64,000 bases of DNA, from positions 1,667 through 65,666 of the forward strand of contig DWUR01000100.1 of the NCBI GenBank assembly GCA_019120635.1, read 5' to 3'. This document shows positions 21,338 through 22,824 of the stretch, piece by piece. How positions within the stretch are numbered: the stretch's first letter is position 1; the number at the start of each line of letters is the position of its first letter. The position numbers and the translations under genes are program-made. The notes under the pieces are model-generated. The model was not told the DNA's origin and ran no database searches. It saw nothing but the letters and a program-made list of their open reading frames with translations. Source of the DNA: Candidatus Corynebacterium intestinavium. GTDB taxonomy: Bacteria > Actinomycetota > Actinomycetes > Mycobacteriales > Mycobacteriaceae.

Positions 21338-21712
21338 ATGGTGCCTTTGACGAACGGTACTGAGCGAGAAGGTACTGGGCGACCAGATACTGGGGGACAC
21401 ACTGGCGGCCAGGTGGTCGCCGAGCAAGAGCGGATTCAATCAGCAGCACACGAGGCGCGGTCGGTGGCGGAGCAGCTGGCGGCGGTGGCCCCGCCCCACA
21501 CGCCGCACGTGGAGCTGCCCTTCCTGCCGGAGCTGGGGCGGTTCCTCGCCGCGCTGCAGCAGGCTCGGGCCCGCCACCACGAGGCCACCGGAGAGTTGGC
21601 GAGGTTCTATCAGGGTGCCGCAGGAGCGCTGGATGAGTTCCGGGGGCGCGTAGACGAGCATGAGCAGGCCGCCCAGGCTGGCTTTGAAGCACTTGCGGGA
21701 GGTGTTCGGTGA
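21338..21712 (+). CDS. Small helical hypothetical protein (about 124 aa), possible EspC/WXG100-like type VII substrate
   Basis: ATG 21338 after GGGGGAATA; Ala/Glu/Gln/Arg-rich amphipathic helices; no signal peptide; stop overlaps the next ATG. Confidence 0.65.
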   Translation: MVPLTNGTEREGTGRPDTGGHTGGQVVAEQERIQSAAHEARSVAEQLAAVAPPHTPHVELPFLPELGRFLAALQQARARHHEATGELARFYQGAAGALDEFRGRVDEHEQAAQAGFEALAGGVR

Positions 21713-22824
21713 TGAACGCACCTGTATTGGCACCAGCTGGCGGGGCCGTTGTCGAGGACGTGATCGGCTCCGTTCTTGGGGAGATGGCTGGCTCCATGCT
21801 GGGTGGGGGCGGCTGCGTCCCGGATTTTCTGGGGCTCGTGGAACCCATCGCGGCTCTCATCCCGCAGCCACTGCAGCCGGGGGTTTCTGCACTGTTGGGC
21901 TCCGGGGTCAACGGGCTTGCCGGGGAGGTCATCCGGACGGTCGGCTCGGCCGTGCTCGGCGAGGCCGGTGGGGCGATGGCCGCCAAGCTCGCGCAAGTTT
22001 CGGAGGCGGTGGAGCTCGTCGAGGAGGTCCGCCGGGGGCTAGACGCGGTCGCCGGGCGCGGACAGCAGGCCGTCCAGGCGGCGATCGAGGATATCGGGGC
22101 GATCGCGATGGAAGCCCTGGCGGAGATCGGTGCGACGGTGAATCCGCTGCAGCTGCTCGGCCCGACCGCGCCGGTGGTGCTGGCGGAGGCGCAGGCCATC
22201 GCATGCAAGCACCTGGGCCGGGCGGAGGCCCGCGTGCAAGCGCTTGGCCAGGAGTTGCTGGGGCTAGCAGAGGAGGCCTCGGCCACCGTGGTGCCTGCGG
22301 AGGCCATCCCGGCAGTCCCCACTCCGTCCGAGGGGTCGGACGGGGCGCCTCTTGCGCCGGCGAATCCGGGTGGGGCCACGGGATCCGGGTCGGCTCCCGG
22401 TGGGGCGGCTGTGAGTTCCGGTGACGCCGCGGATTCCAGCGATGCTGCGGATCCCGACGCTGTGGCGGGCGCCCCGACCGAGGCGGCGGCCAAGGCCGTG
22501 GCCGCGGCGAAGACGCAGCTGGGCACCCCTTACGTGTGGGGTGGCACCACACCAGGCCAGGGCTTCGACTGCTCCGGATTCGTCCAGTGGGCCTATGGGC
22601 AAGCCGGGGTGGAGCTGCCCCGCCTGGCCGACCAGCAGGCGGTGGGCCCGCAGATCCCGATGGATCAGGTGCAGCCCGGGGACCTGGCGGTGTGGGATGG
22701 TCACGTGGCGATGGTCATCGAGGACGGCCAGATGATCGAGGCCGGCGACCCAGTGGGTATCAGCCCGATCCGTACGGAGAACATCGGAATGAGTTTCCAC
22801 GGTTTCTACCGCCCCACCGGCTAG
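21709..22824 (+). CDS. NlpC/P60 (C40) peptidase with a long helical N-terminal region and no signal peptide
   Basis: LGTPYVWGG, GFDCSGFVQWAY, QPGDL, GHVAM, MIEA (Cys-His-Glu triad). Confidence 0.9.
   Translation: MMNAPVLAPAGGAVVEDVIGSVLGEMAGSMLGGGGCVPDFLGLVEPIAALIPQPLQPGVSALLGSGVNGLAGEVIRTVGSAVLGEAGGAMAAKLAQVSEAVELVEEVRRGLDAVAGRGQQAVQAAIEDIGAIAMEALAEIGATVNPLQLLGPTAPVVLAEAQAIACKHLGRAEARVQALGQELLGLAEEASATVVPAEAIPAVPTPSEGSDGAPLAPANPGGATGSGSAPGGAAVSSGDAADSSDAADPDAVAGAPTEAAAKAVAAAKTQLGTPYVWGGTTPGQGFDCSGFVQWAYGQAGVELPRLADQQAVGPQIPMDQVQPGDLAVWDGHVAMVIEDGQMIEAGDPVGISPIRTENIGMSFHGFYRPTG

Follow-up and report, generated by a model that had tools for sequence, protein, structure and literature searches.

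A signal-less C40 peptidase and its EspC-like partner beside satS in Corynebacterium: a candidate substrate pair of type VII secretion

The window analysed here, a stretch of 64,000 nucleotides (nt) from Candidatus Corynebacterium intestinavium, whose genome, a draft of 2.0 Mb, lies close to the C. urealyticum group, holds two neighbouring open reading frames (ORFs) that raise the question of how a putative cell wall hydrolase without any classical export signal would reach its substrate. ORF1 encodes a small helical protein, and ORF2 a larger one that consists of a helical N-terminal domain (N-domain), a low-complexity linker and a C-terminal NlpC/P60 (C40) peptidase domain; in public annotation the two appear only as 'C40 family peptidase' and 'hypothetical protein'. 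The original prediction, made from the letters of the window, took them for a possible cargo pair of a type VII secretion system (T7SS), used for remodelling of the producer's own wall or against competitors. We find it somewhat more likely than not that the pair is a T7SS substrate-type heterodimer, with a large subunit that carries a C40 peptidoglycan endopeptidase, and that it represents the corynebacterial form of an ancient two-gene module conserved across Mycobacteriales. This reading rests on homology, the export itself being predicted. It may be added that both genes are real: about 70 Corynebacterium loci preserve their synteny and reading frame, and comparison with close relatives gives low dN/dS values (0.10-0.28 for ORF1, 0.20 for the ORF2 N-domain and 0.04-0.07 for the C40 domain). 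The gene limits bear out the translational coupling first read from the window, since the ORF1 stop overlaps both start candidates of ORF2 (GTGA for the GTG start, TGATG for the ATG start), giving an overlap of 1-4 nt, and the first protein does end in ...DEHEQAAQAGFEALAGGVR after about 124 residues as had been described.

Evidence for T7SS membership comes from sequence profiles and not from predicted folds, and it was obtained through orthologues. Searches with ORF1 and the ORF2 N-domain as single sequences returned close relatives only, because both evolve fast. For the survey of other genera, 5 kb upstream of satS (the gene following the pair) was taken from one genome per genus of the GTDB family, which unites Corynebacterium, Mycobacterium, Rhodococcus and relatives. 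Of the 24 syntenic ORF1 orthologues from other genera, 23 match the Pfam family T7SS_ESX_EspC (PF10824) with a best E of 4.9e-11, and the orthologue from Rhodococcus sp. HM1 matches it over its full length (31.2 bits, cut-off 23.5). On aligning the corynebacterial ORF1 family with these orthologues by hhalign, we obtained 96.1% and an E of 3.2e-9 over 101 columns. The motif YxxxD is near-invariant in the other genera, with Tyr in 22 of 24 and Asp or Glu in 23 of 24 sequences of our column table. These profile comparisons make ORF1 a homologue of the EspC family, whose members are the small partners bearing YxxxD/E. A profile search of the PDB with corynebacterial ORF1 placed designed coiled coils and spike HR1 on top, with PE25 and EsxA at E 0.16-0.5; the top matches were rejected as relatives and ascribed to composition.

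The N-domain of ORF2 gave a parallel result. Among the 24 N-domains from other genera, Pfam matches were found to WXG100 (14 sequences, 1.1e-5), EspA_EspE (8 sequences, 1.6e-5), WXG100_2 (5), PPE (2, 8.5e-6) and EspB_PPE (1). Searched against the PDB, the profile of these domains has EsxB/CFP-10 in its top three places (1wa8_A at E 0.0012; range 0.0012-0.0016), followed by S. aureus EsxA and ESAT-6. Corynebacterial and other-genera N-domains align at 98.2% with an E of 4.7e-14 over 157 columns in hhalign. The Trp of WxG is present in 24 of 24 other-genera domains and the Gly two residues on is near-invariant. Judged by its orthologues, the ORF2 N-domain is therewith homologous to the WXG100/EspA-EspE/PPE-type domains, the partner bearing WxG.

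We then consider how widely the arrangement is kept. A tblastn survey of Corynebacterium gave about 70 loci, and throughout these, one metagenome-assembled genome excepted, the order is upp (reverse strand), ORF1-ORF2 and satS; the species include C. jeikeium, C. falsenii, C. variabile, C. glyciniphilum, C. kroppenstedtii, C. amycolatum and C. vitaeruminis. In the excepted genome (Corynebacterium sp. S11A_Sa_2_sub, locus L073) upp adjoins satS and the pair is missing. ORF1 and ORF2 are coupled without exception, the gap between them ranging from -4 to +3 nt in Corynebacterium and from -10 to +3 nt when other genera are included. Within the genus the C40 domain shows 62-99% identity (60-80% across genera) and ORF1 and the N-domain go down to 20-40%. 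In 27 of the 32 informative other genera a small ORF and a helical N-domain-C40 protein lie directly upstream of satS, usually still beside upp, and in 5 of the 32 the pair is missing. Two genera (L129, L135) have upp directly beside satS with the whole pair gone. In two more genera without the pair, genes unrelated to it fill the slot: that of an ABC1-type kinase in the first case, aldehyde-dehydrogenase-like ORFs in the second. Where upp stands beside satS without the pair, the sequences indicate that the module is dispensable in some lineages. One further genus (L142, 4053-4987) keeps an EspC-like ORF (with YADAE) and a WxG N-domain upstream of satS; its N-domain protein ends without C40, and therefore the helical pair can survive without the hydrolase. 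SatS-like genes outside the family (Blastococcus, Pseudonocardia) have no such pair upstream. Coordinates of all features are collected in the table.

Table. Features of the ORF1-ORF2 locus and its neighbours, in positions of the window
Feature	Position	Strand	Detail or basis
upp (uracil phosphoribosyltransferase)	20555..21202	-	divergent upstream neighbour, synteny anchor
ORF1	21338..21712	+	124 aa; ATG 21338, TGA 21710-21712
ORF1 as a putative divergent EspC-family (PF10824-type) helical-hairpin partner, 124 aa	21338..21712	+	orthologues, hhalign, dN/dS
V105-D-E-H-E109, equivalent of the T7SS export motif YxxxD/E	21650..21664	+	column mapping
ORF2	21709/21712..22824	+	370 aa; start candidates GTG 21709 or ATG 21712
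ORF2 residues 1-36, Gly-rich N-terminal extension, not a signal peptide	21712..21819	+	orthologue alignment
ORF2 residues 37-192, helical N-domain, putatively WXG100/EspA-EspE/PPE-type	21820..22287	+	hhalign, orthologue Pfam/PDB matches
V81-L82-G83 of ORF2, hairpin turn equivalent to WxG	21952..21960	+	AlphaFold2 turn 81-83; column table
ORF2 residues 193-255, Pro/Gly/Ser/Asp/Ala low-complexity linker, variable length	22288..22476	+	AlphaFold2, alignment
C40 (NlpC/P60) domain, ORF2 residues 256-370 and stop	22477..22824	+	Pfam, AlphaFold2, Foldseek
Four to five tandem 15-nt units C(T/A)GG(A/G)CCGGTT(C/T)A(C/A)G	22858..22930	+	upstream of the small ORF
58-aa conserved small ORF, MGGAHSSRSIPGLARIVTQPEEQEYLQAQFLGAPPAVVPKVLDARLRNVEAMSSDPAG	22951..23127	+	ribosome-binding site 8 nt upstream; in-frame conservation
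satS homologue (Rv3311 family)	23139..24419	+	426 aa, acidic; NCBIfam match

The enzymatic part of ORF2 is the most clear-cut. NLPC_P60 (PF00877) is its sole Pfam match, with 77.4 bits against a cut-off of 23 over residues 272-361. Its catalytic residues are Cys287 (TGC at 22570-22572, in FDCSG), His331 (CAC at 22702-22704, in GHVAM) and Glu343 (GAG at 22738-22740, in MIEAG), a triad that is invariant in 31 orthologues. An AlphaFold2 model of the window ORF2, made from an alignment of 31 sequences, has a mean predicted local distance difference test (pLDDT) of 74 and a predicted template modelling score (pTM) of 0.40; in it the C40 region (256-370) exceeds a pLDDT of 90 and has a papain-like alpha+beta fold, the N-domain has helices at 60-80, 84-142 and 153-191, and the linker of about 60 residues is disordered (pLDDT below 50 at 208-246). 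Foldseek matched the C40 part to 8er5_B (E 9e-10, TMt 0.83, root-mean-square deviation 2.0, 41% identity), and other matches were RipB, RipA, Cg1735 and RipC. The NCBIfam models RipA, RipB, RipC, RipD and DIP1281 score 46-82 bits on ORF2 against cut-offs of 215-625, in the C40 part only. Going by its sequence, the C40 domain has an intact catalytic triad under strong purifying selection and is a predicted peptidoglycan endopeptidase. The division into a helical part of about 190 residues, a Pro/Gly/Ser/Asp linker and an intact C40 domain was thus correctly anticipated, and so was the lack of a Sec, Tat or lipoprotein signal in either protein. By a check of charge and Kyte-Doolittle hydropathy, no signal peptide or transmembrane segment was found in ORF1 or ORF2: the first 35 residues of ORF2 hold no Lys or Arg and three Asp or Glu, with a maximal 19-residue Kyte-Doolittle value of 1.45, and the N-terminus of ORF1 is polar. 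The 'LGGGGC' of ORF2 is no lipobox, and the 36-residue stretch in which it lies is absent from most orthologues. This Gly-rich extension is limited to the C. urealyticum-group clade, most homologues beginning at about residue 37 of the window protein. It contains repeats of the type GSVLGEMAGSMLGGGG, and an in-frame unit of 8 residues differs between close relatives (L038:4563-4691), which looks like a repeat expansion.

The window genome has four NlpC/P60 genes, and the corynebacterial set likewise consists of four, namely cg0784, cg1735, cg2401 and cg2402 in one species and DIP0640, DIP1281, DIP1621 and DIP1622 in another (PMC9897464, PMC2827468). From this four-gene pattern ORF2 is most likely of the cg0784/DIP0640 type.

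Several findings weigh against the T7SS substrate reading and are gathered here. Neither the window ORF1 nor the window N-domain has any Pfam match at E<=1, and among corynebacterial ORF1s only 6 of 31 match PF10824, all weakly (best E 0.0026). In the window, the Tyr of YxxxD/E is replaced by Val (V105) with the acidic residue kept (E109), and the Trp of WxG is replaced by Val with G83 kept, so that the window proteins fail a strict T7SS motif test. The pair lies neither in nor near the ESX-4-type locus of the same genome, being on contig C47 and that locus on contig C146 (L160:4546-15722). Co-occurrence with a T7SS cannot discriminate, because EccC or WXG100 is found in essentially all 201 Corynebacterium genomes searched and the system is thus near-universal in the genus. 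The constant neighbour of the pair, overlooked in the original prediction, is the gene of a SecA2-pathway chaperone, which supports another route of export. Finally, cell separation was not impaired when cg0784, which is probably the orthologue in C. glutamicum, was disrupted (PMC9897464).

Regarding the motif residues, the replacements are not peculiar to the window. In the Tyr column, most Corynebacterium sequences have Val, Leu, Ile or Met, single loci having Phe, Ala/Thr or Tyr, and every locus of the column table retains the acidic residue. The Trp column reads Leu, Val or Ile in most corynebacteria, Trp being kept in the C. amycolatum group and one other genome, and the position of G83 is invariant or near-invariant. 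In most corynebacteria, therefore, both aromatic residues have become aliphatic while the Gly and the acidic residue stayed. The loss of the aromatics alone is no argument against type VII export, because the secreted LXG-Lap complexes show the same pattern: there a hydrophobic residue replaces the Trp and is buried in the partner, and the Tyr is absent with the acidic residue conserved (PMC10801868).

To the predicted folds we could turn for little help, and the fold check proposed with the original prediction came out empty. Foldseek against the PDB gave no significant match for the N-domain of the window ORF2 model (pTM 0.40). A pseudo-complex was also built from a natural in-frame junction in C. 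kroppenstedtii (L067), where the stop was read as Gly and ORF1 and the N-domain were folded as one chain, the alignment consisting of a deep ORF1 block and 7 fused rows. This fusion model (pLDDT 69, pTM 0.47) shows ORF1 as a two-helix hairpin (helices 17-43 and 56-116 of the orthologue, pLDDT about 67-75) next to the long helices of the N-domain; its best Foldseek match, at E 0.12, was to axonemal coiled coils, and no T7SS structure was among the matches. Both searches count against the T7SS reading as far as they go, the models being of moderate confidence, and the structure comparisons neither support nor refute a WXG100-like bundle. It may be noted that on aligning fused rows together with ORF1-only and N-domain-only sequences, MAFFT repeatedly put the ORF1-only sequences onto the ORF2 N-domain and not onto the ORF1 part of the fused rows, pairing ORF1 helix 1 with the helix before WxG and ORF1 helix 2 with the last N-domain helix. 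This cross-alignment may reflect Ala-rich composition, or ORF1 and the N-domain may be distant paralogues like WXG100 pairs. Taken as a whole, then, the idea of a type VII cargo pair stands in its homology, which runs through the orthologues (the EspC, WXG100/EspA_EspE/PPE and CFP-10 matches and both hhalign comparisons), and it is not supported by the window proteins in themselves, which match no T7SS model, have lost Trp and Tyr and are encoded away from the ESX locus.

Corynebacteria have ESX-4 as their only type VII system, and it is the ancestral one. In keeping with what is known of the genus, an ESX-4-type locus is present in the window genome, and ESX-4 is the only T7SS type found there. 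The locus encodes EccB (187 bits), EccCa (559 bits) and EccCb (415 bits), all three above their cut-offs, together with a mycosin-like protease (89 bits, below the equivalog cut-off), an Rv3446c-like protein and an EsxA/B pair. At the position expected for EccD lies a 592-residue ORF without an NCBIfam match. In a six-frame search with the EccCa model, the window clade and several others score at about E 1e-120 and the rest at about 1e-160 to 1e-250. We know of few ESX-4 substrates beyond the Esx pair, and of no clearly established housekeeping role of the system.

If the pair is a T7SS substrate, we would expect the following sequence of events. ORF1 and the ORF2 N-domain would form a helical bundle in the cytoplasm, which would bring the C-terminal hxxxE arm of ORF1 beside the (V/L)xG turn of ORF2. 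EccC of ESX-4 would recognise the complex by this composite signal, upon which the complex would be exported, and the C40 domain on its flexible linker would cut stem peptides of the producer's own wall in housekeeping remodelling and not in warfare. SatS, possibly with the product of the 58-residue small ORF, may keep the complex competent for export. A housekeeping role is far likelier than interbacterial killing, because the gene is a conserved single-copy core gene without an immunity partner.

The main rival to this reading is that the pair is a client of SatS and SecA2, in which case SatS would hold the hydrolase and its partner unfolded or export-competent for the SecA2-SecYEG route, and the T7SS-like motifs would be relics or would serve dimerisation only. 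We regard it as possible, though rather unlikely. SatS (Rv3311) is an export chaperone of the SecA2 pathway in mycobacteria (PMC6333443), and satS lies immediately downstream wherever the pair occurs, at a distance from the C40 gene of just 4-86 nt in genera that have no further ORF in between. In M. tuberculosis the slot directly upstream of satS holds sapM, which is co-transcribed with satS and encodes a proven client of SatS and SecA2, and genes of chaperones and their substrates are often in one operon (PMC6333443). SecA2 is encoded in the window genome (1255 bits), and the loss of the aromatic T7SS motif residues in corynebacteria would fit this route as well. Yet clients such as SapM are preproteins that bear a signal peptide (PMC6333443), which ORF1 and ORF2 do not have, and WxG and YxxxD are near-invariant in the 24 other genera, which argues for selection on recognition by a T7SS. 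Moreover, satS persists in genera that lack the pair and in families that never had it, so that SatS does not depend on the pair, and in about half the genera satS stands 300-430 nt away from the genes upstream of it.

The pair could also stay in the cell. Cytoplasmic NlpC/P60 enzymes such as YkfC of B. subtilis trim recycled murein peptides, and the C40 domain could do something of this kind with ORF1 and the N-domain in an inhibitory or regulatory role. Absence of any classical signal and the degenerate motifs in the window would agree with this, as would the lack of a reported cell-separation phenotype for cg0784 and the finding that the N-terminal coiled coil of RipA autoinhibits its C40 domain, by which helical N-domains can be regulatory (PMC9897464). 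We nevertheless hold it improbable, since both proteins share homology with T7SS substrate families that are exported and most genera have kept the export motifs, the C40 domains nearest to this one in fold and sequence belong to wall hydrolases outside the cytoplasm, and the locus has no recycling genes. Use against competitors was the second option of the original prediction; that the pair would be an interbacterial toxin, an LXG-like polymorphic T7SS effector degrading the walls of competitors, is very unlikely. The architecture does recall LXG proteins in its small helical partner gene upstream, LxG-type N-domain, linker and enzymatic C-terminal domain (PMC10801868), and wall-targeting T7SS toxins exist, TelC being reported as one (PMC6193138). 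Against it, the gene belongs to the vertically inherited core, is present in single copy and keeps its chromosomal site throughout the family, its C-terminal domain is the most conserved part (at the identities and dN/dS given above) and not polymorphic, no candidate immunity gene is seen, as downstream there are only the 58-residue small ORF and the cytoplasmic SatS, and neither the window proteins nor the 24 orthologous N-domains match Pfam LXG. Classical Sec or Tat export by a missed start or an atypical signal, finally, can hardly be credited. A 'VRRL' near the N-terminus of some orthologues is what speaks for it, but RR is not conserved and the window reads PIAALIP there, the N-termini are acidic and without a hydrophobic core, and on looking for a missed upstream start that could supply a Sec signal we found no earlier in-frame start for ORF2 in the window, and the reading frame of L038 is open for just 21 nt ahead of the start.

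Among known systems, the putative T7SS pair comes closest to EspA/EspC and EspE/EspF of ESX-1 (PF18879 and PF10824), in which a partner of about 100 residues with YxxxD/E likewise accompanies a larger protein with a WxG N-domain and both are signal-less. It differs from them in that the small gene precedes the large one, whose product terminates in a C40 hydrolase, the site is a core-genome one beside upp and satS and is not associated with ESX-1, and the pair occurs in corynebacteria that have only an ESX-4-type system, with Trp and Tyr replaced in the window. Gene order and architecture also resemble the LXG/Lap proteins of Firmicute T7SSb (TelA/TelC of Streptococcus intermedius; PMC10801868, PMC9600955), and so do the corynebacterial (V/L)xG and hxxxE, with their aromatics gone and the acidic residue kept. 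Unlike LXG/Lap, there is one partner gene instead of two or three Lap proteins and no Pfam LXG match, and unlike the LXG toxins the C-terminal domain is not polymorphic, has no immunity gene and is inherited vertically as a housekeeping gene would be. RipA (Rv1477/Cg1735) and RipC (Rv2190c/Cg2401) resemble ORF2 in layout, with long helices at the N-terminus, a linker that varies and the C40 domain at the C-terminus. The Cys-His-Glu triad of ORF2 corresponds to that of RipA/RipB, and the whole ORF2 chain aligns loosely with Cg1735 and RipC in Foldseek. RipA and RipC, however, have Sec signal peptides and coiled coils that bind Cg1604 or FtsX (PMC9897464; PMC12067865), whereas ORF2 is signal-less with an N-domain related to WXG100 and with NCBIfam scores far below the Rip cut-offs. 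A peptidoglycan hydrolase tied to a type VII system is known in EssH, the CHAP wall hydrolase of S. aureus T7SSb, the tie being hypothetical in our case; EssH is reported to be an accessory factor of the machine (PMC13059805), unlike ORF2, which we read as a WXG-type substrate.

The SapM-SatS system of M. tuberculosis is alike in that an enzyme gene lies immediately upstream of satS, between upp (presumably Rv3309c in that species) and satS. It is unlike in that SapM is a phosphatase with a signal peptide, exported by SecA2, and the slot here is filled by a signal-less pair of putative T7SS type (PMC6333443). The comparison points to an origin of the M. tuberculosis sapM-satS operon in which the pair was replaced. 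In the window the satS product has an isoelectric point of 4.84 and matches the NCBIfam model NF050072, 'protein export chaperone SatS', at E 1.6e-89 with 300.8 bits against an equivalog cut-off of 700. SatS was found in 121 of 121 genomes and 34 of 34 genera of the GTDB family.

Of the remaining neighbourhood, the upstream genes in the window are glpK, a DUF1707 protein gene, an amidohydrolase gene, punA, pmmB and upp on the reverse strand. Promoter and terminator scans of the locus found nothing useful. Between ORF2 and satS, the tandem 15-nt units are a possible operator or regulatory repeat, and the 58-residue small ORF that follows them ends 11 nt before the satS ATG. Its core reads GLARIVxxPxxxEYxxxQFLGxxPxxVPxVL, about 28 Corynebacterium loci have it in frame at the corresponding place (dN/dS 0.05-0.34), and it has no match in Pfam. 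A further ORF, absent from Corynebacterium, lies between C40 and satS in about 17 other genera and has about 110 (100-120) residues (e.g. L081:5319-5639; further examples in L125, L130, L131, L133, L139 and L148). Its consensus is NRxGTVxVRATDQGLP...ELRYGA...LGLPTR...SWMR, and it is often coupled to C40 (gap -4 to +27 nt). A search of the PDB with the profile of this third ORF found nothing. A 'YbaB/EspL-like' label for it was dropped as weak, the matches to YbaB_DNA_bd being below threshold (E 0.0024 for one member and 0.093 for another). No relationship between the small ORF and the third ORF was detected, hhalign giving 0.4%; a value of 96% was rejected as an artefact of over-extended ORFs.

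Within the literature searched, the module of an EspC-like protein, a WXG-C40 protein and satS is undescribed. The SatS paper (PMC6333443) does not mention the neighbouring pair, a recent review of mycobacterial NlpC/P60 enzymes and a phylogeny paper on Corynebacteriales tie no NlpC/P60 enzyme to type VII secretion, and a large survey of polymorphic toxins reports NlpC/P60 toxin domains only with type VI secretion and PVC systems, in other phyla. Of interest here are the hydrolase as a putative cargo, the fact that it belongs to the core genome of organisms whose sole type VII system is ESX-4, and its link to SatS. With a core-genome cargo candidate of obvious enzymatic activity, which occurs from Corynebacterium to Rhodococcus, the function of ESX-4 could be read out directly in harmless laboratory species such as C. 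glutamicum, and the unexplained 'fourth' corynebacterial NlpC/P60 gene, probably cg0784/DIP0640, would gain a likely route of export. The fixed neighbourhood with satS raises the question of a crosstalk between SecA2/SatS and type VII secretion, two routes that are thought to be separate. One might go further and suppose, as a speculation that we ourselves find doubtful, that SatS, known solely from the SecA2 pathway, was ancestrally a dedicated cytoplasmic chaperone of the EspC-like/WXG-C40 pair and that sapM took over the client slot later. If this were true, either a WXG-type heterodimer would be handed to SecA2, or SatS would also serve ESX-4; both ways the two routes would have a chaperone in common, and in the exported C40 enzyme one would have the factor, long missing, that opens the wall for the envelope-spanning machinery.

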